Positions 1 to 9,667 of a stretch of DNA of 64,000 nt are shown piece after piece. Numbering within the stretch: position 1 is the first letter of the stretch; every line of letters starts with the position of its first letter. The stretch spans positions 175,836 to 239,835 of the IMG/VR virus record IMGVR_UViG_3300033076_000838. One strand, 5' to 3'. The DNA comes from a virus (taxonomy: Duplodnaviria; Heunggongvirae; Uroviricota; Caudoviricetes). Below the pieces are notes generated by a model, which saw only the letters and a program-made list of their open reading frames with translations, was not told the DNA's origin and searched no databases. Both the position numbers and the translations under genes were made by a program.

Positions 1-1212
1 AAATCCTTTGATAATTAAATCTAATAATGAATTATCATTATTAACACTATTCATTATTTTAGAATGAACCAAATCAGACCACTCTTTACATAATACATAA
101 TTTGTATCAAATTCATTCATAAATGATTCCACAAATTGTGCAAATAATTTACTATTTGCTCTACATCTTTTAGAGTCTTCATAAAATGGATGGGGTGGAA
201 TATCAAACATCAACTCTAACATTTTAAGTGGATAATCATGTGTAGATATAAATGGTATTCCTGCTAAAATAAGTGCAAATGTTTTTTCTGAAAGATATTG
301 TGATAGATATTCTTTTTTACTCCATGACCAACTTTCACAAAGTATTTGCATTTTGGCTTTTGATAAAACTCTAAAAAACATATCCATATATCCTTGATGA
401 TTCATAATCCAAGTAACATCCTCAAAATCATTTTTACCATATACGGAATTTATAGGTATGTGTTTTATTTTTGGTGAATTCAAATTATAATCTGGATTTT
501 GTAATGAATCGCTTCGTTGTAACAATAACCTATCGTTTTTAATTTTACTCAATTCGTTTATTATCAAAACTCTATTTAGTTTATGATTTTTTATACTATA
601 CATTAAATCATAATCAAAATTAAGTTTATCATAAATTTGTTTGAATTCGTAAAACCATCTAATACCAATTATCTCATTCCACTGGAATATGGTATTTGTT
701 AATGCGTAATGAAAATTTGGATATTTTGATTCTACTGCTGAATTTAAAAATAAATTATCCACAATAATATGATGATTATTTAATTCAGATAATAATTTTT
801 CTACCTCAACCCATTTATCATTTTGTTCTATCGTATCATGAGTTTGAAGTATTTTTTCAGTTCTAAAATAAGTTATTATCCATTTTTGGTGAGGTGGTGC
901 ATCTTTAATTAATTTTTTATATATGGATAGAATTTGTTGTGATTCTTGTTCCATATAATGTTCATCTCTTTCTATGTATCCAATTTTAGAATCACCACTT
1001 CCGTAAAATAAAGCTGTGAAATAATCTAATATATGATGACCATCTTCTTCAAAACTAATTTGATTTTTAAATATAAATTGAAAATCAACACCTTTATACT
1101 GACAATCAATTATATCAACACCATCTGATGAAGAATATTTACGATTAATAGTATTGTGTGCTACTTTATAAAATATTGATTTTTGATATGAGTGATGTAT
1201 GTATATTTTCAT
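1..1212 (-). CDS. Hypothetical protein, partial (runs off window start); possible glycosyltransferase-like C-terminal half
   Basis: Manual translation: ATG at 1212, open to base 1 (404 codons, MKIYIHHSYQKSIF...). Contains CESWSW...YLSEKTFALILAGIPFI, loosely like the GT10 'TEK' motif. Absent from the ORF track because it has no stop in the window. Confidence 0.7.
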   Translation of the reverse strand, partial: MKIYIHHSYQKSIFYKVAHNTINRKYSSSDGVDIIDCQYKGVDFQFIFKNQISFEEDGHHILDYFTALFYGSGDSKIGYIERDEHYMEQESQQILSIYKKLIKDAPPHQKWIITYFRTEKILQTHDTIEQNDKWVEVEKLLSELNNHHIIVDNLFLNSAVESKYPNFHYALTNTIFQWNEIIGIRWFYEFKQIYDKLNFDYDLMYSIKNHKLNRVLIINELSKIKNDRLLLQRSDSLQNPDYNLNSPKIKHIPINSVYGKNDFEDVTWIMNHQGYMDMFFRVLSKAKMQILCESWSWSKKEYLSQYLSEKTFALILAGIPFISTHDYPLKMLELMFDIPPHPFYEDSKRCRANSKLFAQFVESFMNEFDTNYVLCKEWSDLVHSKIMNSVNNDNSLLDLIIKGF

Positions 1213-1214
1213 AA

Positions 1215-1739
1215 CTAAATTATTTTTGTATCAAAATCAATTCGATTTCCTTTTCGTAATTTTCCCGGTTCGTTTATATCATATATATCCTCATAAAACG
1301 TTATTGGAATATTAAGTGTATTTGATATGTAAACTAATTCATCATTACATTTTTGAATGTATTCATATTCTTTATCGTAATTAGGAGTTCGTTCCCACAA
1401 ATATGGTTGGTTGGATTTAAAACTTTTTTCCTTTTCTTTATACATCAAATACGCCCAACTTTCTGCACAATTGGTTAGATTCTTTCTTGACAATAATATA
1501 ACTTCATCAAATTCTTTGGTTAAATTTAACAACCATTCAATTCTATCTTCACTTTTAATTGTAGTTGGTAAATGAAAAATTATTGTCTTAACAACTGCAT
1601 TTTTAAATTTACTTATATCTGGTATAGTTGTTGATGAATTAAATGGTTCAAACTCATATTTTAAATTATGTTTTATAGATAATCTTTTACCTAATTCACT
1701 AGAACCCGTTCTCGGTAACGCAATTATTAAAATATTCAT
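1215..1739 (-). CDS. Sulfotransferase-like P-loop protein (Stf0-like)
   Basis: N-terminal IIALPRTGSS resembles the 5'-PSB loop; LLSRKNLTNCAESW resembles the 3'-PB motif. Confidence 0.6.
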   Translation of the reverse strand: MNILIIALPRTGSSELGKRLSIKHNLKYEFEPFNSSTTIPDISKFKNAVVKTIIFHLPTTIKSEDRIEWLLNLTKEFDEVILLSRKNLTNCAESWAYLMYKEKEKSFKSNQPYLWERTPNYDKEYEYIQKCNDELVYISNTLNIPITFYEDIYDINEPGKLRKGNRIDFDTKII

Positions 1740-2302
1740 ATCAACGAATTATTATTTTTTACCTTTGGATAATTAAAATCAGTTTCAGTCATCCAAACAT
1801 TTAACGCATATCGAATCCCCTCCGTTACCGGTAAAACTCCATGATATGTTTTAGTTCCAATAAAAGATATAGAATCTCCTAATTTCAAATCAAATATTTC
1901 AATTCCATCTAAATTTTTAAAATTAAGTGATGGATTCTTACTTTCTGATAATGCAAATTGTCCACCATTAAATCCATCCGATAATACTATGACAGTAGTT
2001 AGTTCACTTGTTTTATCTTTATGTAAATTTAAATACCTCCCATCGTAATATGATGTTAAACTGATATTGAAGTTTTTTAAATCAAATGTATTATAATCAA
2101 ACCACAAACTAAATTCATTCGATTTATATTTTTGGATTAATAAATTGATAATTTTAGTTTTGAATTCTTCATCATATATTCGTCTACAATCCCACTTTTC
2201 AGATGGATTATACGAAAAGCGTTCACCATTACTCAAACAAAAATCAATAATATTATTTGCTTCAGTCCTATCACAAAAATTATTATTTATAGAATAATTC
2301 AT
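1736..2302 (-). CDS. 2OG-Fe(II) oxygenase
   Basis: YLNLHKD (HxD), LSDGFNGGQF, TYHGVLPVTEGIRYALNVW (distal His and Arg). Confidence 0.85.
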   Translation of the reverse strand: MNYSINNNFCDRTEANNIIDFCLSNGERFSYNPSEKWDCRRIYDEEFKTKIINLLIQKYKSNEFSLWFDYNTFDLKNFNISLTSYYDGRYLNLHKDKTSELTTVIVLSDGFNGGQFALSESKNPSLNFKNLDGIEIFDLKLGDSISFIGTKTYHGVLPVTEGIRYALNVWMTETDFNYPKVKNNNSLI

Positions 2303-3117
2303 TATAAAATTTTTATTTGTTTAGACGATGTAGATTTGATAATATTGGTTTCAGTAATAAATCTAAATAACTCTTCACCTATTAGTTTGTATCCTAATTT
2401 CGAAGGATGCATACCAGGAACATTTAATATATTATATTGTGGAGATTCCCATACATTTCTATCGTTAGTATTTGTTAAGAATTGTTTAAATGTCGTATTA
2501 CCAAATTTCCAATAGTTTGATTTATTGATTAAATTAGTTTTATCATCCTCCAATCGTATATTATCAATCATCATATCAAATGCATCACAAAAAATGTAAT
2601 TTATACCATAATATTCAAATAATGATTGTAGGAATAATATATAATTCTGATTGATTATATTGTAATAATTTTGTGTATATAATTCTCTTACAAAGAATTC
2701 TTTGAAATTGATAAGAAATTCGTTATACGTTGGATTTTTACTAAACTTATTGTGGGTAAACCATTTGGTTTTATGCTGCTCTTCTAAATACTTCACACCC
2801 CACACATGCCATTCATCGGTAGGAAAAAATGGAACACTATCTCTAAGAGTAGAACTCCACATAATAACCACTAAATCATTTTGTGATATTTTATAAGATT
2901 TTACTAAATCAATTATTCTATCGAATATTTGTTTATTTGAACTACCGGCTTCTCCATAATTTATATGAGGAATATCTAATAAATCACTCAATACCTTTGG
3001 CCATGCATGTTGGTTTCTATATTGTGTTTTTTCCAAATCGTTTGTGATTTTAGATTCAACATCTATATTACCACCAACACCTTCGGTCCAACTATCGCCA
3101 AATGCACATAACCTCAT
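2302..3117 (-). CDS. SGNH/GDSL hydrolase-fold protein
   Basis: AFGDSWTEG (block I), NYGEAGSSN (block II), MHPSKLGY (block V). Confidence 0.8.
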   Translation of the reverse strand: MRLCAFGDSWTEGVGGNIDVESKITNDLEKTQYRNQHAWPKVLSDLLDIPHINYGEAGSSNKQIFDRIIDLVKSYKISQNDLVVIMWSSTLRDSVPFFPTDEWHVWGVKYLEEQHKTKWFTHNKFSKNPTYNEFLINFKEFFVRELYTQNYYNIINQNYILFLQSLFEYYGINYIFCDAFDMMIDNIRLEDDKTNLINKSNYWKFGNTTFKQFLTNTNDRNVWESPQYNILNVPGMHPSKLGYKLIGEELFRFITETNIIKSTSSKQIKIL

Positions 3118-3129
3118 ATTATCAAATCA

Positions 3130-3267
3130 TTATGATAAATGCTTATCCTTTATTCTATTTACAAACTCTTGAACTGCAGCTGCAATTTTTACTTTTGTAT
3201 TAGATGGTATTGGTGCTATTAAAGCCTTAATGACCGTAGTAGGTCTTTCTATTCTTGTACTTGCCAT
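3130..3267 (-). CDS. Small hypothetical protein (45 aa)
   Basis: Manual translation MASTRIERPTTVIKALIAPIPSNTKVKIAAAVQEFVNRIKDKHLS; fills the gap between co-oriented genes. Confidence 0.65.
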   Translation of the reverse strand: MASTRIERPTTVIKALIAPIPSNTKVKIAAAVQEFVNRIKDKHLS

Positions 3268-3290
3268 AGTATAATATTTTTTTTAATTAT

Positions 3291-4769
3291 TTAAAGTTTA
3301 CCTCCACTACATGTTGGGCACCACCCAGAGTGGCAATAATATCCACACCAATTCCACGGACACCAACACGAGTTGTGCATCACACTAAAATCACCATCAC
3401 CTATATCAACAAGGAATAAATCGGATGGTTCAAAATCCATACTATAAATTACTTTTTGAGCATGTTCCATCTCTAATCCTGTAATTTCAATAGTTGTTAA
3501 TTGGTTGGTAGTAGAATCAGTTACAATTAATTTATCACCCACATACATTTTGTTTAATTTTTCAAAACGAGTTGCTAATGACCCAGATTCTTCAATATAA
3601 TATGTACATGAAGGCGAATCTACCCAAGTCTTACCATCGGCTAAAGTAACTCTTACATATATTGTATCGATGGATGCTGAAACAATTGATTGTAAACTAG
3701 ATGATGTAGATGTTAGAGTATCATTTGAATATTGTAATGAACCCGACCATCCATAAGTTTCGATTTGTGTTTCTTCAAATTTTGCTGCATGATTGTTATT
3801 AAAATCAAGAAAATCAATAGAACGAACGTAATCACCCAATTTTATAGTATCCACATCTATTAATGAACCAGTGTAATCTAAAATAACACTTTCATCATCG
3901 GTGTGATATTCGACTCCTCTATTTTTACCCAACTCTTTTGTAAGATATTTGTATCTACTTTTTTGATTTAACGTAGTTGTAGTAGAAAGTAATTCAGTAG
4001 ATGCGAATGTAAGTGGAATAATCGCAGATTGTCTATATCCACCCATATTAATTACATCTAAATTACCACCATATATAATATCTATACTTCTGATAATTGC
4101 ATATCTACCTTCTACTAAATTCGTTTCATCATAAATAAATTCTTGTAATAAATGATTTGTAGGAGTTGTAGATTTTAATGAACCCAATTCAGCATCAGAT
4201 GTTAATATATGTAATTCTGGATATAATTCACTATTATAATTTGGGTATCTTGCTTTAATTAATACATTTGGATTATTACCATTATCGGTTATTGTAGTAA
4301 TACCATCAAATCCCAATACACTATCATCTTGATATGTGTTTGGAATATAAGTAGAACCACTCATTAATGAGAAAAATTCAAATTTATCTGCACAATATGT
4401 TTCATCTACCAATGCAGTAGTATCAAATGCTTGTCTTAAAATAAATTTATTAGAAGTATCTTCAATATAAGGAACTGTCACCGAACCGAATGGAACAACA
4501 TAATCAGTAAACGTTATATTGTTTTCAGAACATTTTTGTTGTAATAATACCTTAAATTTATATGGTTGATTTACTGGTTTGTGTGAATCAACTTCAGTCC
4601 ATATATAATGGAATTCAGTTATTGAATTCGCTACCAACATAGTAAATAACGCATCGTAATCTAATAGGTCTGCACCATCGTTGTATATTGTGGTATTTGT
4701 GTTCGTTTCTAATATCTTAACATCACCATTATATTCTAATAGGTCAGTTCCAATAATTGTTGCTTTCAT
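3291..4769 (-). CDS. Fusion: circularly permuted ATP-grasp-like domain + Hint domain + 26-aa Cys/Trp-rich C-terminal peptide
   Basis: N-terminal GTDLLEYNGDVKILETN (D...ExN) precedes VLIKARYP and LLQEFI, the permuted ATP-grasp order. Hint blocks: SVILDYTGSLIDVDTIKLGDYVRS ... VGDKL ... IYSMDFEPSDLFLV ... VMHN, followed by SCWCPWNWCGYYCHSGWCPTCSGGKL. Confidence 0.7.
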   Translation of the reverse strand: MKATIIGTDLLEYNGDVKILETNTNTTIYNDGADLLDYDALFTMLVANSITEFHYIWTEVDSHKPVNQPYKFKVLLQQKCSENNITFTDYVVPFGSVTVPYIEDTSNKFILRQAFDTTALVDETYCADKFEFFSLMSGSTYIPNTYQDDSVLGFDGITTITDNGNNPNVLIKARYPNYNSELYPELHILTSDAELGSLKSTTPTNHLLQEFIYDETNLVEGRYAIIRSIDIIYGGNLDVINMGGYRQSAIIPLTFASTELLSTTTTLNQKSRYKYLTKELGKNRGVEYHTDDESVILDYTGSLIDVDTIKLGDYVRSIDFLDFNNNHAAKFEETQIETYGWSGSLQYSNDTLTSTSSSLQSIVSASIDTIYVRVTLADGKTWVDSPSCTYYIEESGSLATRFEKLNKMYVGDKLIVTDSTTNQLTTIEITGLEMEHAQKVIYSMDFEPSDLFLVDIGDGDFSVMHNSCWCPWNWCGYYCHSGWCPTCSGGKL

Positions 4770-4790
4770 ATTTTTCCTTTATATTTCATC

Positions 4791-4798
4791 TATAAATA
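4791..4798 (-). promoter_or_regulatory. Putative late promoter TATTTATA
   Basis: Octamer lies 22 nt upstream of the 4769 start; the same motif recurs before many structural genes. Confidence 0.65.
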
Positions 4799-4807
4799 TA
4801 TAATTCA

Positions 4808-5095
4808 TTAAATTAAGGAATTTTCATCCTTATCTGGTATAGGTTCTAAATATCCTAAATCAGTCTCTCCCCATTTTTTCTTTGTGCATGCATTAAATGT
4901 ATTCGAAAATACCTTTTTATTTAAAGGACACCCGCAGTGATTACATAATGCAGACCATTTTACACCTGATAATATTTCTTTTCTATATTCGCATCCCATA
5001 CACACATTTAATCTTTTCTCTGCTAATTCTTCTTGTAAAGGTGTTGGATTAAACGATGATTTCCATGCATCAAATATTTCTTTATAATCAATCAT
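4808..5095 (-). CDS. Small Cys-rich putative metal-binding protein
   Basis: CMGC ... CNHCGC ... CTKKKW. Confidence 0.7.
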   Translation of the reverse strand: MIDYKEIFDAWKSSFNPTPLQEELAEKRLNVCMGCEYRKEILSGVKWSALCNHCGCPLNKKVFSNTFNACTKKKWGETDLGYLEPIPDKDENSLI

Positions 5096-5857
5096 TTATA
5101 TTAGAGTTTTAACTGATTTTGGTAAATCGTAATAATCATAAATACTATTGTATTTTTTAATAAATTCGGAATTTAATTTTAAATTAGTTTCCATATGTTT
5201 ACTAGAATTTACTTCTTTTAATTGAAATGGTTTTTGAGTAATATTTGAAATCCACATTTCCATCTCTTTTAAATTTTTAATATCAAACCATATAATAGTT
5301 GGGTCGTTATTATGCCAATAAATTCCCGGTGTTATTAAAATATCAAGTATATTAACAATATATTCTTCGGAATGCAATTTTAATTCGATTGGTATGCCAT
5401 AACGTTGTGATAATAAATTTTTATCTATTAAATAATCGCATATAATATCCCATCGATTTTTCTTTGTAAGCAATTGTTCCGTTTTGTAAAAAAATAATTC
5501 ATCTAATGTAATGTTTTTAAAATATTCATATACATCATTTGCACCTGCTCGTTTTAAATCAAAAAGTATGTGTTTATATAATGAATAAAATGTTTCATGT
5601 CTATCTCTTTTTACTGCTATTATAGGATACTCAAATCCAAATTTTTTACCTAAATCAATTAGTGGTTCGTGTCCATGCTGAATATAATCCATTATAGTCG
5701 ATTCATCTATATTAGTAAAATCTATTTTCGAATTAAAAGAATTCCAACTTTCTTTAATAGTTTCAACTGATAATCCATTCAGTATACAAGAATAATGAAA
5801 CGACGTTGAACCTCTTCTTGGTAAACTCAAATATATAAACTTATTATCTATTAACAT
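5096..5857 (-). CDS. Sulfotransferase-like protein
   Basis: YLSLPRRGSTSF (5'-PSB-like); IAVKRDRHETFYSLY (3'-PB-like). Confidence 0.6.
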   Translation of the reverse strand: MLIDNKFIYLSLPRRGSTSFHYSCILNGLSVETIKESWNSFNSKIDFTNIDESTIMDYIQHGHEPLIDLGKKFGFEYPIIAVKRDRHETFYSLYKHILFDLKRAGANDVYEYFKNITLDELFFYKTEQLLTKKNRWDIICDYLIDKNLLSQRYGIPIELKLHSEEYIVNILDILITPGIYWHNNDPTIIWFDIKNLKEMEMWISNITQKPFQLKEVNSSKHMETNLKLNSEFIKKYNSIYDYYDLPKSVKTLI

Positions 5858-6507
5858 TATATCAAAGATTTTTCTTTTTTAATAAATTCAAATCCAACAT
5901 TACCAGCCATTACAATTCTATCTATTGTAGATTTCGGTGCATTGTTTGGAGTATGTGGCATATCACCTGGCATTATAATTAAATCATCTTCTTCCGGTCT
6001 TATCCAATATTCTTTTTTATTTTGGCCTCTAAAGTATAATACACCATCTTCGCCTTCCATTACATCTGGCATTTGAATATAATAAACGTAAGTATAAGTT
6101 GGAACAAATGATTCCATTTGTTTATTGATTTCAGTATGAACATGAAATTTATCTACACCTTTTAGTTCATTGTGTTTAAATTGTATTTGAACTGGGTCAA
6201 TTGAACGAACTACATTTACCCAAGAATCTGTATTAATTCTATTAAAAATTTTACCTTCTTCTACATAAATTTGTTTACATAAATTAATTCCATTTTGAAG
6301 TATTTCATCTAATTTATTTTCAATTTTAACATCACCTATAAAATTTAAATTATTTTTTTCTTTCTTATACCCAAACCCATCAGTTTTAACATCTGGCAAT
6401 GATTCAATCACATCTTTTGCTTCAGATATAATTTGGTTTTTGAATGATGATAAATTTAATTTTGTTTTCCAAATGAAAGTGGATTCATCAAAATATATTT
6501 TTTCCAT
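5857..6507 (-). CDS. 2OG-Fe(II) oxygenase-like (cupin/DSBH) protein
   Basis: FHVHTE, TYVYYIQMP, DLIIMPGDMPHTP, RIVMAGNV. Confidence 0.7.
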   Translation of the reverse strand: MEKIYFDESTFIWKTKLNLSSFKNQIISEAKDVIESLPDVKTDGFGYKKEKNNLNFIGDVKIENKLDEILQNGINLCKQIYVEEGKIFNRINTDSWVNVVRSIDPVQIQFKHNELKGVDKFHVHTEINKQMESFVPTYTYVYYIQMPDVMEGEDGVLYFRGQNKKEYWIRPEEDDLIIMPGDMPHTPNNAPKSTIDRIVMAGNVGFEFIKKEKSLI

Positions 6508-6508
6508 A

Positions 6509-7759
6509 TTATAACAATTCTTTTTTTATAATTTTTTTATTTTTTCTAAAAATGGTTGTATAGTTTGATACTGCAAATGGTAATTCATTCGTTGATGATT
6601 CTTTCAATTCAAACGAATTTAATAATTCTACATCATTTTTTGAGTTAATACTTTTATTCTCATTTAATATTAATTTTAATTTAGTTGGTATTGGTGTAGA
6701 TTGAGCATCCTTCCAAAATTGTGTATCATCTCGTTCCGTTAAATAATGATAACGAATAAATAACATATTTTGTTCATTTATTTCCGAACTCCATTGGTTG
6801 AATCTATCTCTATAATTTTCATTAAATTCAACATCTAATAAACGTTTTAATTGCATTATAGTTGTCATTAATGAGGTTGCTTCTAATGGTTCTATAAAAC
6901 TAAATGATAATCCAATTGATATAGAATTACCAATCCAACTTCGTTTGAACGTACCTGGATTAAAATCAAACACTTTTTGAATACTAATTTGATGACCTAA
7001 TTTAGTTTCAACTTCTACTTTAGCATCCTCAACTGATGTATATTTATCACTAAATACATATCCACATCCTAATCTATGTTGCAATGGTATTTGAAACATC
7101 CAACCATATTTCAGTGCTTCTAATTTAGTTTGTGTTCTATCTTTTATAGTAATTTTATTTTCTTGTGGTAAGAAAAACCCAAATGCTTTATTTACTAATA
7201 AATATTCTGAATAATCAATCCAATCTTCTTTATGTATTTTACCAGTTATTAATCTAGCAAATCCACTGCAATCAAATATAAAATCTAAATTGATTTTTCC
7301 ATTGTTTAATAAATCTAAACTATTAATAATTTCATTTCTATTATTTATTTTTACAATGTCATCATCAATCCATTTAACACCCCTACTAATAGCAATTTCT
7401 CTAAGATATTTAGAAACCATTTTAGCATCAAAATGATATGCATACGAAATAGATTGCAATAATTCGGATGGTTGTTTACCCATAAGTGGATGTTTAGCAA
7501 TTCTACCATCACCATTCCAATTTATAAATTCTAATCCATTTTTTATAGATGAACCGGTTTTATTAAAAAAATCAGTTTGGTCTATTTCTAATAATGAAAG
7601 CATTTTACCAAAATTAGATGTTCCACCTTCACCCGCACCTAATATTCCAATTTTAGAACTTTCGATTAGTGTTACATCTACGTTTTTCCAAAATTTATTT
7701 ACAACTAATGCAGTCAACCAACCAGCAGTACCTCCACCAATAATCACAACTTTTTTCAT
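6509..7759 (-). CDS. Flavin-dependent tryptophan halogenase-like protein
   Basis: IGGGTAGW, GAGEG, SIKNGLEFINW (Lys at the catalytic position), FDCSGF, GWMFQIP, FIEPLEATS. Confidence 0.85.
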   Translation of the reverse strand: MKKVVIIGGGTAGWLTALVVNKFWKNVDVTLIESSKIGILGAGEGGTSNFGKMLSLLEIDQTDFFNKTGSSIKNGLEFINWNGDGRIAKHPLMGKQPSELLQSISYAYHFDAKMVSKYLREIAISRGVKWIDDDIVKINNRNEIINSLDLLNNGKINLDFIFDCSGFARLITGKIHKEDWIDYSEYLLVNKAFGFFLPQENKITIKDRTQTKLEALKYGWMFQIPLQHRLGCGYVFSDKYTSVEDAKVEVETKLGHQISIQKVFDFNPGTFKRSWIGNSISIGLSFSFIEPLEATSLMTTIMQLKRLLDVEFNENYRDRFNQWSSEINEQNMLFIRYHYLTERDDTQFWKDAQSTPIPTKLKLILNENKSINSKNDVELLNSFELKESSTNELPFAVSNYTTIFRKNKKIIKKELL

Positions 7760-8325
7760 ATAACTGATTTTTTTATTTCTTTACTTGGCCAAACATTTAA
7801 AGAATATCTAATCCCACTATTTAATTTATCTACACAATGCAATATATTTGAATCGAATATAAAAATACTACCTTGTTTTTTAGGAACATTATATTCAATA
7901 CCATCAATCATATAAATTACATCACCACCATCGTAATCATCATTTAATTGAAATATGATAGTTGATGATGCCCCATACATAATTTCGTGTGAATCGGAAT
8001 GCCAATCTAAAAAATCATCCTTTGAATATTCATTAAAAGAATATTTTGGAATTCCATTATATTTGATTCCATTAAAAGGTTTTAACTCATTTAAAATGGT
8101 TATTGTTTTATCTGATATAGATTTTATTTCTGATAATTCTAATGTATTATCTACAAAATAACAACCCATTCTTTTGTTTGTATTTTCATTTAAACCACTT
8201 TCAGTATAAACACCATTTACAAATTTAGATGATGTCATTTTATTTAATCCGAGTGATTTACCCAAATCAATAATAAAATTACATTCTTCTGGTGTTAAAA
8301 AATTTTCAATATATTTTACAAACAT
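7756..8325 (-). CDS. 2OG-Fe(II) oxygenase (P4H/PKHD-like)
   Basis: DWHSD, QLNDDYDGGD, ILHCV...GIRYSLNVW. Start moved to MFVKY at 8325 because the track start (8433) runs through the promoter region. Confidence 0.85.
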   Translation of the reverse strand: MFVKYIENFLTPEECNFIIDLGKSLGLNKMTSSKFVNGVYTESGLNENTNKRMGCYFVDNTLELSEIKSISDKTITILNELKPFNGIKYNGIPKYSFNEYSKDDFLDWHSDSHEIMYGASSTIIFQLNDDYDGGDVIYMIDGIEYNVPKKQGSIFIFDSNILHCVDKLNSGIRYSLNVWPSKEIKKSVI

Positions 8326-8344: not shown

Positions 8345-8389
8345 TATAAATATATAAAAACTACTTTTTTTGATATTATAATATTTATA
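8345..8389. promoter_or_regulatory. Back-to-back putative late promoters (TATTTATA on minus at 8345-8352 and on plus at 8382-8389)
   Basis: Each copy lies 20-24 nt upstream of its divergent start codon (8325 and 8413). Confidence 0.7.
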
Positions 8390-8412: not shown

Positions 8413-8592
8413 ATGAAAGACGTGTATAAGCAAAAGATTGTAGATTTGATTAATTCAATTAACGGAAGAGTAGTATTGATTGATAAAATGATTGATGGCC
8501 AGAAACAACCTAACCCACAAGAAGCAAAACAATACATCAGAGAAATTCAAAAAGGTTTAGAACAAATAGACGAGTTTATCTCAATATCGTAA
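8413..8592 (+). CDS. Small hypothetical protein (59 aa)
   Basis: Manual translation MKDVYKQKIVDLINSINGRVVLIDKMIDGQKQPNPQEAKQYIREIQKGLEQIDEFISIS; lies between the promoter and the 8594 gene. Confidence 0.7.
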   Translation: MKDVYKQKIVDLINSINGRVVLIDKMIDGQKQPNPQEAKQYIREIQKGLEQIDEFISIS

Positions 8593-8593
8593 A

Positions 8594-9667
8594 ATGAACT
8601 GGCTGAAATATTTGGTAGGATTATCAGCGATAATTGTTGCCGGATGTGCTGCTTATTTTTCGGTTACAGGTTTGGGCGTTTTATTCGCCGGAGCATCTAC
8701 ATCGGTAATGATAATGGCAGGTTCATTAGAACTTGCTAAGTTAGTTGCTGCAACTTATCTAAAACAAACGTGGGATGATATTAAAGGATTCAACAAATGG
8801 TATTTAACCCTTTCAGTTGGTATTCTTATGATGATTACATCTGCAGGTATTTTTGGTTATTTATCTAATGCATTCCAACAACAAAATTTAGCATTACAAC
8901 AAGTTGATAGAGAGATTTTAGTGCATTCAACAAAAATAGAACAAAACACCAATCAAATTACACAACTCTCTACGCAAATTACCGAATTCAATTCTAATCA
9001 AGGTAAAATCATAGATGGTGGTAAAGTAAATTCACGTCTATTACGTTCAATCGATAATAGAGATAAACAAATTGCAAAGTTAAATGATAAGATTGCAAAA
9101 TTACAAGAAGATAATGCTACTGAAAACGATGCAATCAATAAAATCAAAACTGATAATTTAGGTTTAGAAAAAGAAGTTGGTGGATTTAGATTTGTTGCTG
9201 AAGCCTTTGGATTGGAATTGAATACTGTCGTTAAGTTCTTCATCTTTATTATTGTAATAGTATTTGACCCTCTTGCAGTTGCACTAATCATTGCGTTTAA
9301 CGGATTGATTGGTAAGAAAAATATGTATGGTGAATCCGAACCCTTAGTGGAAAAAAATTATCAAATTTACGAAGATAGTGGAAAAAATTCTACAATTGAT
9401 GAAGAAATTCCAATTATGGTAGAAAATACTCCACAATTTGATGAAGCAGATTTGAACAAAGATGGAGTTGTAAGTGAAGAAGAACTTAGAGAGTGGTATG
9501 AAAAAGATGGATGGAAAGACCCATATCAGGGTAAATCTTATTTTACTCACCCGTGGTTTGATTGGAAAAAGAAAGAACGTTGGGTAAACGATAGAGAGGC
9601 TATCAATTACTGGTTAAATCACGAAGGTGGTAATCATAATGCATTAAAAGAATTACAAAAAAAATAA
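8594..9667 (+). CDS. Multi-pass membrane protein with coiled coil and EF-hand-like loop
   Basis: Three N-terminal hydrophobic helices, a heptad coil, one more TM helix, then DLNKDGVVSEEE. Confidence 0.7.
   Translation: MNWLKYLVGLSAIIVAGCAAYFSVTGLGVLFAGASTSVMIMAGSLELAKLVAATYLKQTWDDIKGFNKWYLTLSVGILMMITSAGIFGYLSNAFQQQNLALQQVDREILVHSTKIEQNTNQITQLSTQITEFNSNQGKIIDGGKVNSRLLRSIDNRDKQIAKLNDKIAKLQEDNATENDAINKIKTDNLGLEKEVGGFRFVAEAFGLELNTVVKFFIFIIVIVFDPLAVALIIAFNGLIGKKNMYGESEPLVEKNYQIYEDSGKNSTIDEEIPIMVENTPQFDEADLNKDGVVSEEELREWYEKDGWKDPYQGKSYFTHPWFDWKKKERWVNDREAINYWLNHEGGNHNALKELQKK

Follow-up and report, generated by a model that had tools for sequence, protein, structure and literature searches.

The window analysed here is a stretch of 64,000 nucleotides (positions 175,836 to 239,835 of the virus record IMGVR_UViG_3300033076_000838). 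Near its start lies a gene that fuses an ATP-grasp domain to a Hint domain and a short Cys-rich tail, surrounded by genes for a halogenase, oxygenases and sulfotransferase-like proteins. Is the tail released as a peptide, and is it the substrate of the neighboring enzymes?

Gene organization of the locus

The features of the region are listed below.

8345-8352, minus strand: promoter-like motif TATTTATA, 20 nt upstream of the ATG at 8325
7756-8325, minus strand: P4H-like 2OG-Fe(II) oxygenase, 189 aa (PF13640, E 1.1e-8, above cut-off; phrog_61, E 1.5e-22)
6509-7759, minus strand: short flavin-dependent Trp-halogenase homologue, 416 aa (PF04820, E 2.5e-87)
5857-6507, minus strand: divergent 2OG-Fe(II) oxygenase, 216 aa (PF13640, E 0.0068, below cut-off; phrog_81, a 2OG oxygenase family, E 3e-10)
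5096-5857, minus strand: sulfotransferase-fold protein (ST253), 253 aa (AF2 model, VIA matches)
4808-5095, minus strand: Cys-rich protein cys95, 95 aa (weak DUF6171 match)
4791-4798, minus strand: promoter-like motif TATTTATA of the fusion gene, 22 nt before the ATG at 4769
3291-4769, minus strand: fusion gene, 492 aa (ATP-grasp, Hint, tail)
3930-4769, minus strand: ATP-grasp domain of the GspS/YgiC/glutathione-synthetase type, aa 1-280 (structural matches, VIA)
3372-3914, minus strand: Hint domain, aa 286-466, with a terminal His-Asn and without the N-terminal nucleophile
3294-3371, minus strand: putative released peptide, 26 aa, Cys/Trp/Tyr-rich (the reading frame ends ...MHN-SCWCPWNWCGYYCHSGWCPTCSGGKL)
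3130-3267, minus strand: small conserved ORF, 45 aa, directly downstream of the fusion gene
2302-3117, minus strand: SGNH/GDSL hydrolase-like protein, 271 aa (PF00657, E 1.1e-7, above cut-off; DUF6071, E 9e-8)
1736-2302, minus strand: 2OG-Fe(II) oxygenase, 188 aa (PF13640, 2OG-FeII_Oxy_3, E 9.9e-7, above cut-off)
1215-1739, minus strand: small sulfotransferase-like P-loop protein, 174 aa (Atlas neighbors)
1-1212, minus strand: protein of unknown family, 416 aa, cut by the window start (35 of 150 loci)

All genes of the operon are co-oriented on the minus strand, and their stop and start codons abut or overlap. The start codon of the first gene is the ATG at 8325 rather than a TTG at 8433. The last gene in the window, whose product gave no family match in a profile search, extends 36 nt past the window start. 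It is followed by five further genes, namely a DUF6734-like gene, an FkbM methyltransferase, an unknown gene, a SAM methyltransferase and a SET-domain gene, making 16 in all. The TATTTATA motif also stands ahead of structural genes within the window. We tentatively regard the region as most of a 16-gene phage operon that is expressed late.

The gene content agrees with the original prediction. Family matches identify the co-oriented Trp-halogenase homologue, the three 2OG-Fe(II) oxygenases and the SGNH protein. The two sulfotransferase-like proteins are present as well, as judged from the language-model neighbors of both and the structural matches of the ST253 model. The tail encoded by the end of the fusion gene has the predicted composition of 6 Cys, 4 Trp, 2 Tyr and 2 Pro.

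Structure of the fusion protein

The AF2 model of the fusion protein has a pLDDT of 90. Structural matches (VIA) of its ATP-grasp domain are YgiC-ADP (Z 10.0, 202 residues aligned), GspS (Z 9.1) and homoglutathione synthetase (Z 8.7). Residues D9, E21, N23, D104, R112, D116, D122, K172 and R227 of this domain occur in at least 90% of 136 sequences.

Sequence and structure comparisons both confirm the Hint fold. The fusion-family profile matches the KlbA intein (E 1.4e-9), and the domain aligns with 1at0 in Foldseek (TMt 0.78) and with BIL2 (Z 16.0) and NpuDnaB (Z 15.7) in VIA. The N-terminal nucleophile and the block-B His have been lost, and position 289 is H, K, G, L, I or S in the 136 sequences. 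The terminal pair, however, is nearly invariant among the 136 relatives, which span 21-98% identity: H465 is present in 129 and N466 in 134, and nothing else around the pair is conserved. Because the N-terminal nucleophile and the block-B His are gone and the His-Asn is kept, a cut would be possible only at the C terminus of the Hint domain itself.

The tail and its probable release

The framework of the tail, xCxCx4Cx3Cx4CxxC, is retained in 116 of 120 close homologs, and its aromatic positions are likewise strongly conserved inside the close subfamily. Tails are hypervariable among distant relatives and across at least 270 clusters. Between subfamilies the sequences that follow the His-Asn are unrelated, their length ranges from 5 to more than 150 aa and their Cys number from 0 to 11; some family members have only 5-7 residues beyond the HN. 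In the AF2 model the tail has a pLDDT below 50 and does not pack against the body. In some relatives it is followed by a Peptidase_S74-like domain that starts at K|SD. In others it is followed by a second, canonical Cys1...HN Hint domain (PT-HINT 9.8e-13; such second domains score 1e-12 to 1e-15). Judged from sequence, the tail of such relatives is bracketed by two putative self-cleaving modules. Taken together, the Hint fold, the near-invariant His-Asn, the hypervariable tails and the bracketing second domain of some relatives make it likely that self-cleavage frees the tail as a peptide.

The tail might instead stay in place as a disulfide or metal-binding knot on a late, possibly virion-associated ATP-grasp protein, in which the Hint domain is a relic and the neighboring enzymes are unrelated. 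The late-type promoter motif of the fusion gene, which resembles those ahead of structural genes, is in keeping with this, as are the usual location of S74 domains at the ends of trimeric fibers and spikes, the conservation of Cys and aromatic positions in the close subfamily, and the loss of the N-terminal catalytic residues of the Hint domain. However, a relic would hardly keep its His-Asn while nothing nearby is conserved, and a structural knot is difficult to reconcile with tails that change completely between subfamilies, with the shortest tails or with the unpacked tail of the model. We therefore consider an unreleased tail unlikely.

Conservation of the module

The comparison covered 150 dereplicated viral loci representing 26 subfamilies of the fusion, all from related T4-like aquatic phages. 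The neighbors of the fusion gene are on the same strand in every case. Its tightest partner is cys95, present in 127 loci across 22 subfamilies and at most three genes away, on either side, in 124 of 130 occurrences. The protein has six invariant Cys, arranged as CxxC, then CxxCxC, then one C. Among the enzymes, ST253 (118 loci) has the most constant link to the fusion, and the cluster of the P4H-like oxygenase encoded at 7756-8325 occurs in 119. The divergent oxygenase is found in 84 loci, the 174-aa sulfotransferase-like protein in 83 and the SGNH/GDSL (Lipase_GDSL/DUF6071) protein in 68. In all 52 of its occurrences the 45-aa ORF directly follows the fusion gene, and a 49-aa counterpart holds this position in 19 loci of other subfamilies. 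Of 148 dereplicated loci, 104 carry the TATTTATA motif no more than 60 nt ahead of the fusion gene; among other same-strand genes the count is 130 of 3103 (4%).

Clustering of this kind could simply be inherited synteny of a variable island in one phage lineage, with no functional meaning. The shared T4-like ancestry of the loci, and trait correlations that vanish under phylogenetic control (see below), speak for this. However, the loci have 84 local gene orders, through which cys95, the 2OG oxygenase and ST253 remain adjacent to the fusion, on either side of it, no more than three genes apart and on the same strand. Their adjacency persists down to about 25% identity. Furthermore, relatives seldom share genes in the outer flanks. 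The arrangement itself is found again in 80 of 80 close relatives, as far as their flanks extend. The overlapping stop and start codons also argue against mere synteny. These 8 kb hold three of the roughly five 2OG genes of this jumbo aquatic phage, along with the sole halogenase in its 287-kb genome, so the clustering is beyond chance. Synteny alone is a very improbable explanation. The module is real and apparently undescribed; a tblastn search with cys95 and three members of the fusion family as queries gave no match in 50,697 phage records.

Enzymes and their possible substrates

The nearest solved structures to the halogenase are Trp 5-halogenases, PrnA and VirX1. The matches stop near residue 360 of 416, and the top-ranked chains are 497-554 residues long; the roughly 100 C-terminal residues of free-Trp halogenases are missing. 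It had been proposed that the enzymes match the residues of the tail. The analysis gives no support for this: under phylogenetic control, enzyme presence does not track tail composition. The halogenase occurs in 50 of the 150 loci, 46 of which belong to the window's own subfamily. Its raw correlation with tail Trp (p 3e-9) reflects shared ancestry: Trp content is unchanged in four of six independent contrasts. A halogenase is absent from some loci with Trp-rich tails (subfamilies 5 and 16; loci L075 and L079) and present in others whose tails have no Trp (L096, L134). Co-occurrence with the fusion holds for cys95, the 2OG oxygenase and ST253; the halogenase is found mainly in the window's clade.

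Neither sulfotransferase-like protein has a match in Pfam or NCBIfam, but the language-model neighbors of both belong to sulfotransferase families. Those of the 174-aa protein (Stf0, Sulfotransfer_3 and Sulfotransfer_1 in the Atlas) are a lead only. The AF2 model of ST253 has a pLDDT of 93.8, and its eight best full-length VIA matches are all sulfotransferases, headed by NDST1 (Z 8.2) and HS 2-O-ST (Z 7.9). Heparan-sulfate enzymes score Z 7.3-8.2, compared to Z 4.4-4.7 for tyrosylprotein sulfotransferases (TPSTs), so that the modelled ST253 is structurally nearer to glycan sulfotransferases. P13, H63 and R84 are invariant, S17 and S92 nearly so, and there is a P-x-x-x-S loop. A cassette of APS kinase, adenylyltransferase and DUF2061, which would supply PAPS, adjoins the module in 45-55 loci.

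The resemblance of ST253 to heparan-sulfate enzymes also fits a different reading, in which the enzymes belong to a pathway that tailors small molecules or glycans, and the fusion gene is a mere neighbor in a variable island or a user of the product. The pathway would then yield an amino-acid or sugar derivative carrying halogen, hydroxyl, sulfate, carbamoyl or methyl groups, or else decorate the polysaccharide of the host envelope, as has been suggested for jumbo cyanophages. The fusion might ligate the product to its peptide or to a protein; enzymes of the GspS ATP-grasp type couple a carboxylate with a small amine. A NodU-like carbamoyltransferase, GNAT, FkbM methyltransferase, SGNH and dTDP-sugar epimerase recur near the fusion, a set typical of glycan or small-molecule chemistry. 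A halogenase adjoins 2OG genes in HTVC008M and Syn1, where there is no fusion gene. A cyanophage cluster of 8-12 genes, with a halogenase, 2OG oxygenases, carbamoyltransferases and methyltransferases and likewise no fusion, has been read as a metabolite or glycan pathway (PMC7824862). Halogenase and 2OG genes thus do occur independently of the fusion in HTVC008M, Syn1 and S-SSM6a-type cyanophages, and related enzyme clusters exist in cultured cyanophages and a pelagiphage that lack the fusion gene, which counts in part against the original proposal. The cyanophage halogenases, however, are only about 30% identical, and the trio of cys95, 2OG oxygenase and ST253 stays beside the fusion through many changes of gene order, which is hard to explain for an unrelated neighbor. 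Moreover, no glycosyltransferase or sugar-nucleotide gene was found in the operon, and PF13640 and SET are mainly protein-modifying families. The glycan or small-molecule pathway is possible, if somewhat doubtful. The P4H-like PF13640 oxygenases, the SET domain and a halogenase that lacks its C-terminal residues fit protein substrates.

Relationship to known systems

One close parallel is Pretoxin-HINT (PF07591) of bacterial polymorphic toxins, where Hint likewise directly precedes a hypervariable payload and autoproteolytic release is predicted; AFDB matches include Pretoxin HINT and RHS proteins. The phage-encoded version differs in its payload, a Cys-rich peptide of 20-100 aa rather than a toxin domain, and in its carrier, where an ATP-grasp enzyme takes the place of an Rhs or filamentous stalk. 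In addition, no immunity gene was identified.

In the BUBL loci of ciliates (BIL-ubiquitin-like-BIL), a bracket of two Hint domains frees and activates a ubiquitin-like domain. These loci are the best structural match of the phage Hint domain (PDB 6tmm, 6y75), and relatives such as P0123 and P0133 have the same bracket, in which the peptide is preceded by a Hint with a terminal HN and followed by one with an initial Cys. The bracketed element is Cys-rich, however, rather than a ubiquitin fold, and the window's protein has no downstream Hint.

Graspetides such as microviridins, and the GspS/YgiC/YjfC amide ligases, exemplify ATP-grasp chemistry on peptide carboxylates. In graspetide systems a leader peptide guides a separate, RimK-like ligase, whereas the phage ligase is of the GspS/glutathione-synthetase branch and fused to its peptide. 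In borosin-type RiPP precursors (OphMA), a tailoring enzyme and its C-terminal core peptide form one polypeptide, so that the 'leader' is a whole enzyme. The phage fusion shares this arrangement, but has an ATP-grasp ligase in place of an N-methyltransferase, and its built-in Hint would do the work of a separate prolyl oligopeptidase.

Conotoxins are likewise small six-Cys frameworks rich in Trp, Tyr and Pro and hypervariable between lineages, and their bromo-Trp, sulfo-Tyr, hydroxy-Pro and disulfides are in principle within reach of the nearby enzyme classes. The likeness is one of composition only; the two are not homologous, and the sulfotransferase does not resemble TPSTs. The 'sugar- and amino acid-modification' cluster of jumbo cyanophage S-SSM6a has a similar set of halogenase, 2OG, carbamoyltransferase and methyltransferase genes, but no ATP-grasp-Hint-peptide gene, cys95 or sulfotransferases were reported there (Iyer et al. 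2021, PMC7824862).

A possible peptide pathway

The idea of a phage pathway for a modified peptide is strengthened by the probable release of the tail and by the conserved same-strand module, and weakened by the unsupported match of enzymes to residues. That the neighboring enzymes tailor the released tail in a RiPP-like pathway is our working view, held with some reserve. At the center of the operon would be the GspS/YgiC-like amide ligase joined to Hint and the hypervariable tail. As its conservation suggests, Hint would cut at its own C terminus by Asn cyclization, freeing the 26-residue tail. The fusion gene's own promoter-like motif would fit a substrate made in excess of its enzymes. The dedicated partners would be cys95, ST253, the P4H-like 2OG oxygenases and, in the window's clade, the short halogenase, most likely acting on the tail or on a moiety ligated by the ATP-grasp domain, before or after release. 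What is freed at lysis would then be a RiPP-like peptide, modified and rich in disulfides.

The fusion protein and its operon

The operon in the window carries one representative of a module that is real, widespread and apparently undescribed as far as literature and database searches reach. The core of the module is a Cys-rich peptide, predicted to release itself, which is fused to an ATP-grasp ligase. The 287-kb viral record containing the window has T4-like genes, a single halogenase gene and about five 2OG-Fe(II) oxygenase genes, three of which lie inside this cluster. The operon comprises 16 genes, with stops and starts that overlap or abut, and extends past the start of the window. Its features are:

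3291-4769, minus strand: ORF of 492 residues, the fusion protein (predicted ATP-grasp and Hint domains, and tail)
3294-3371, minus strand: 26-residue Cys/Trp-rich tail, following Met-His-Asn at the C-terminus of the fusion
4808-5095: cys95, a Cys-rich protein of 95 residues
5096-5857: ST253, a putative sulfotransferase-fold protein of 253 residues
5857-6507: OG216, a divergent 2OG-Fe(II) oxygenase of 216 residues, the third and weakest PF13640 match (17.8 bits, below the cut-off of 27; phrog_81 at 3e-10)
1215-1739: 174-aa sulfotransferase-like protein
Minus strand: Trp halogenase homologue (PF04820, 294 bits, 2.5e-87)
Minus strand: two other 2OG oxygenases, P4H-like (PF13640, 36.4 and 30.1 bits, cut-off 27)
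Minus strand: GDSL/SGNH protein
Beyond the window start: DUF6734-like gene, FkbM methyltransferase, unknown gene, SAM methyltransferase, SET-domain gene

The tail, halogenase, 2OG oxygenases and SGNH protein, all named in the original prediction, were recovered by ORF translation and profile matches. Residues 8-14 of the halogenase (GGGTAGW) contain the N-terminal GxGxxG motif, in keeping with its PF04820 family match. As for a C-terminal substrate module for free tryptophan, the enzyme has 416 residues compared to 497-554 in the top-ranked solved enzymes and the alignments end near chain residue 430, but these lengths do not reveal how large the substrate would be.

The same prediction named two sulfotransferase-like proteins, ST253 and the 174-aa protein. 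No match to either of them, or to the 416-aa protein of unknown family at 1-1212, was found in Pfam, PHROGs and NCBIfam. The language-model neighbours of both sulfotransferase-like proteins are sulfotransferase families, which is the sole support for the 174-aa protein. The ST253 model has a pLDDT of 93.8, and its top eight VIA rows are sulfotransferases aligned over residues 4-248 with Z of 8.2-6.3; Foldseek found nothing in the PDB at E <= 0.001, and usable scores come from the exhaustive aligner only. Pro13, His63 and Arg84 are invariant in the ST253 alignment, and Ser17 and Ser92 are nearly so. These residues fit PAPS-binding elements, and the model shows a sulfotransferase fold with 5'-PSB and 3'-PB elements. 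ST253 is nearer to heparan-sulfate sulfotransferases (Z 7.3-8.2) than to TPST1 (Z 4.7), TPST2 (Z 4.7) or tick TPST (Z 4.4), although all these relationships are distant. A complex prediction for cys95 with the Hint-plus-tail part gave a score of 0.02, which counts neither for nor against binding.

The sequence TATTTATA lies 15-30 nt upstream of the fusion gene in 104 of 148 loci, compared to 130 of 3103 other genes, and is also found ahead of structural genes in the window. Over the whole window it shows no enrichment (15 observed, 20.8 expected), and the only informative feature is where it stands with respect to genes. For the first operon gene, the longest ORF begins at TTG 8433, but the start is ATG 8325: together with TATTTATA at 8345-8352, this ATG indicates a product of 189 residues. 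The plus-strand gene at 8594 has a TATTTATA of its own, which is divergent and lies at 8382-8389.

Nearly all proteins of the 16-gene operon (window 1215-8325 and L276:8791-12439, minus strand) end in [ST]-L-I, K-I-L, T-I-L, H-L-L or similar. Most junctions in the operon are TTAATATAATG, with overlapping stop and start, and the endings could be a mere by-product of such TAATG junctions. This explanation fails for cys95, which is followed by a 38-nt gap, and for the SET protein, the last gene with nothing downstream. Because both carry the ending in the absence of an overlapping junction, it may be a protein-level tag. A conserved, basic ORF of 45-49 residues ending K-H-L(S) is located directly downstream of the fusion gene (window 3130-3267, minus strand; cluster 38, e.g. 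L099:6936-7085), at position +1 in all 52 window-type and all 19 cluster 38 occurrences.

Domain structure and predicted release of the tail

Profile searches of Pfam, PHROGs and NCBIfam gave no match for the fusion, and its domains were assigned from an alignment-based AF2 model (pLDDT 90, pTM 0.83), in which the last 24 residues are disordered. Residues 1-280 resemble YgiC-ADP (VIA Z 10.0, rmsd 4.1, 202 residues aligned), GspS (Z 9.1) and homoglutathione synthetase (Z 8.7). The three Z values are moderate; the model shows an ATP-grasp domain of the glutathionylspermidine synthetase (GspS)/YgiC/glutathione synthetase branch. Asp9, Glu21, Asn23, Asp104, Arg112, Asp116, Asp122, Lys172 and Arg227 of the fusion are conserved in at least 90% of 136 sequences. 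Among them, Glu21 and Asn23 (E-x-N), Lys172, Arg112 and Arg227 are candidate Mg-ATP residues.

The modeled fold of residues 286-468 places them in the Hint/intein superfamily. Foldseek aligned them with the Hedgehog Hint domain (1at0, TMt 0.78) and the RecA intein (2in8, TMt 0.81). The VIA matches have Z of 16.0-12, the best being the BIL2 domain of the Tetrahymena BUBL locus (Z 16.0) and the NpuDnaB intein (Z 15.7), and the family profile matched the KlbA intein (2jmz) in the PDB at 1.4e-9.

The His-Asn pair of block G is nearly universal in the family (His465 in 129 and Asn466 in 134 of 136 members). Intein residue 1 corresponds structurally to position 289, where the alignment of 136 sequences has no conserved Cys, Ser or Thr nucleophile (His 62, Lys 18, Gly 10, Leu 9, Ile 8, Ser 7), nor is the conserved His of the block-B Thr-x-x-His found at positions 384-390. 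The Hint domain of the fusion is therefore neither a splicing intein nor a Hedgehog-type N-terminal cleaver. The nucleophilic +1 residue required for splicing is likewise not conserved, either across the family (Ala 26, Ser 22, Pro 15, Val 10, Tyr 10, Gly 7) or among close homologs (Ser 63, Pro 17, Ala 13, Gly 13, Thr 12). Judged by these residues, the domain keeps exactly what C-terminal cleavage via Asn cyclization would require.

Diversity of the tails

A word-indexed search found at least 545 homologs of the fusion, and an exhaustive search reached members with as little as 24% identity, which fall into 270 clusters at 50% identity. The close subfamily conserves the tail framework xCxCx4Cx3Cx4CxxC together with the aromatic positions. 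Between subfamilies, the sequence that follows His-Asn is unrelated, ranging from 5 to more than 150 residues in length and from 0 to 11 Cys.

A Peptidase_S74-like autoprocessing domain follows the tail in several lineages, beginning at K|SD. The match of one homolog, P0008, to Peptidase_S74 begins at the Ser of K|SDIS and scores 21.6 bits, just under the cut-off of 22; the motif SD...K.NI...IAQ[ED]L is seen in several subfamilies. Other lineages instead have a canonical Hint domain after the tail (PT-HINT 1e-12); it is complete, running from Cys1 through His-Asn, and ends with several basic residues. Among P0123, P0133, P0247, L082, L245, L246 and L269 are relatives that carry one or two such domains, each ending in V-H-N and then K-K or K-K-F, similar to the K-[LIV] terminus seen in the short forms. 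Other relatives have a Cys1 Hint domain directly after His-Asn, with no Cys-rich segment.

The His-Asn pair, the hypervariability of the tails and their bracketing by S74 or Hint domains in relatives lead to the prediction that the core is excised from its leader, as in a RiPP cluster. The tail is probably released, because a peptide located between two self-cleaving modules, as in the relatives, is hard to read except as an excised product. BIL-Ubl-BIL loci are bracketed in the same way. A structural tail that stays attached is improbable.

Tblastn of the fusion and of two distant relatives (P0187 and P0141) against 50,697 phage records found no match, and the same search with cys95 found no homolog. 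Megablast of the operon region gave no match. A scan of 185,579 species genomes with one set of patterns found nothing; a second set found family members on three MAG contigs (L277, L278 and L279), one labeled Pelagibacterales (3.7 kb), one Flavobacteriaceae (248 kb) and one a Methanobacteriota archaeon (5 kb). These are probably phage contigs mis-binned with cells, and the 248-kb contig may hint at the host.

Linkage of the enzymes to the fusion

The 274 viral loci collected were dereplicated at 90% identity of the fusion protein to 150 loci in 26 subfamilies, and all neighboring ORFs were clustered. All of the most frequent neighbors share the strand of the fusion without exception (100%).

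Neighbors of the fusion gene in 150 dereplicated loci
cys95: 127 loci, 22 subfamilies
PF13640 2OG oxygenase: 119 loci
ST253: 118 loci
OG216: 84 loci
174-aa sulfotransferase-like protein: 83 loci
SGNH: 68 loci
DUF2061: 55 loci
Small adenylyltransferase: 54 loci
Halogenase: 50 loci, 46 of them in the subfamily of the window
Radical SAM: 48 loci
APS kinase: 45 loci
Carbamoyltransferase: 30 loci

Synteny inherited passively would also keep these genes together, but the linkage persists through 84 different local gene orders. The cys95 gene is found at -1 (68 times), +1 (25), +2 (22) or +3 (7) relative to the fusion, ST253 at -2 (50 times) or at +2 to +4 (52 times), and genes outside the module are seldom common to different loci. 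The linkage is thus maintained through rearrangement and is not frozen synteny; inheritance alone is a very improbable explanation.

A cassette of DUF2061, APS kinase and small adenylyltransferase adjoins the module in 45-55 of the 150 loci (e.g. L170:4798-5235, L187:5071-5451, L215:6338-6553), possibly as a PAPS supply. The window's own genome has an APS kinase about 85 kb from the module (G000:C1:90776-91102). L083-L085 belong to a lineage with 33% identity, in which a 33-aa ORF comes after the fusion and then a cys95 homolog, a 2OG oxygenase, a CxxCxxCC (PF03692) protein, a radical SAM enzyme, another 2OG oxygenase and PhoH; a halogenase is missing. Here, a different enzyme complement surrounds a different tail.

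Trp halogenases and 2OG oxygenases carried by phages have been on record since 2005 without a known substrate (PMC2984593, PMC7824862). Jumbo cyanophages such as S-SSM6a have clusters of 8-12 genes with halogenase, 2OG oxygenases, carbamoyltransferases and methyltransferases (Iyer et al. 2021, PMC7824862). The nearest cultured halogenases, from HTVC008M (36% identity) and cyanophages (about 30%), sit next to 2OG genes in neighborhoods that lack a fusion gene, so the enzymes also occur where there is no fusion. ORFs of 95 and 29 aa that flank the Syn1 halogenase are related neither to cys95 nor to a Cys-rich peptide. Such clusters favor a pathway to a metabolite or glycan, which the ligase might join to the peptide. 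However, their enzymes are distant paralogs, and the most faithful partners of the fusion, namely cys95, ST253 and the 2OG oxygenase, are not those reported from the cyanophage clusters. Independent occurrence of the enzymes, which the original prediction took as speaking against itself, is thus found, though for distant paralogs. The metabolite or glycan pathway is a real, if rather doubtful, possibility.

Enzyme content and tail composition

The original prediction also asked whether enzyme content tracks the Trp, Tyr and Pro of the tail. In raw tests on 97 loci with complete neighborhoods, tail Trp is 9.2% with a halogenase nearby versus 2.8% without (p 3e-9); OG216 is associated with Trp (5e-7) and 2OG with Pro (0.0017). 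Shared ancestry was controlled on a tree of the fusion protein bodies, on which the halogenase state changes seven times. Six independent contrasts of halogenase and Trp-richness gave 1.6 in the same direction, 0.5 opposite and 4.0 unchanged, a null result from a powerless test, and the sulfotransferase/Tyr contrasts on the same tree were null and equally powerless. Because the contrasts were null, the raw correlations were rejected as evidence of matching between enzymes and tails. There are exceptions both ways: Trp-rich tails occur with no halogenase (subfamilies 5 and 16, loci L075 and L079), and halogenases occur beside tails whose first 60 residues contain no Trp (L096 and L134). That the operon enzymes tailor the tail peptide is a tentative reading from their linkage, with a chance somewhat short of even. 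The residue-by-residue analogy to conotoxins is offered as a hypothesis only.

Biological significance

The full proposal, speculative and on the unlikely side as a whole, is that aquatic jumbo phages encode a class of peptide factories that process themselves, widespread but so far undescribed. Their hypervariable Cys-rich core would be fused to an ATP-grasp ligase and to a Hint domain capable only of cleavage, and the operon enzymes would sulfate, hydroxylate and, in the clade of the window, halogenate this core. The modified, conotoxin-like peptide would be released at lysis and could act as a toxin, signal or anti-competitor agent.

If this is true, the long-unexplained phage prnA-type halogenase gains a peptide substrate in this lineage, for which the module provides a concrete, directly testable candidate in the same operon as the halogenase and the 2OG oxygenases. 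The fusion would be a new route to a peptide natural product, with leader, tailoring ligase and releasing protease in one polypeptide. Its natural tail variants number in the hundreds, with at least 270 clusters at 50% identity, and would supply a library of disulfide-rich peptides that already exists in nature. Should the enzymes act on a metabolite instead, the module would still connect its chemistry with a self-cleaving peptide and a ligase of the GspS kind.
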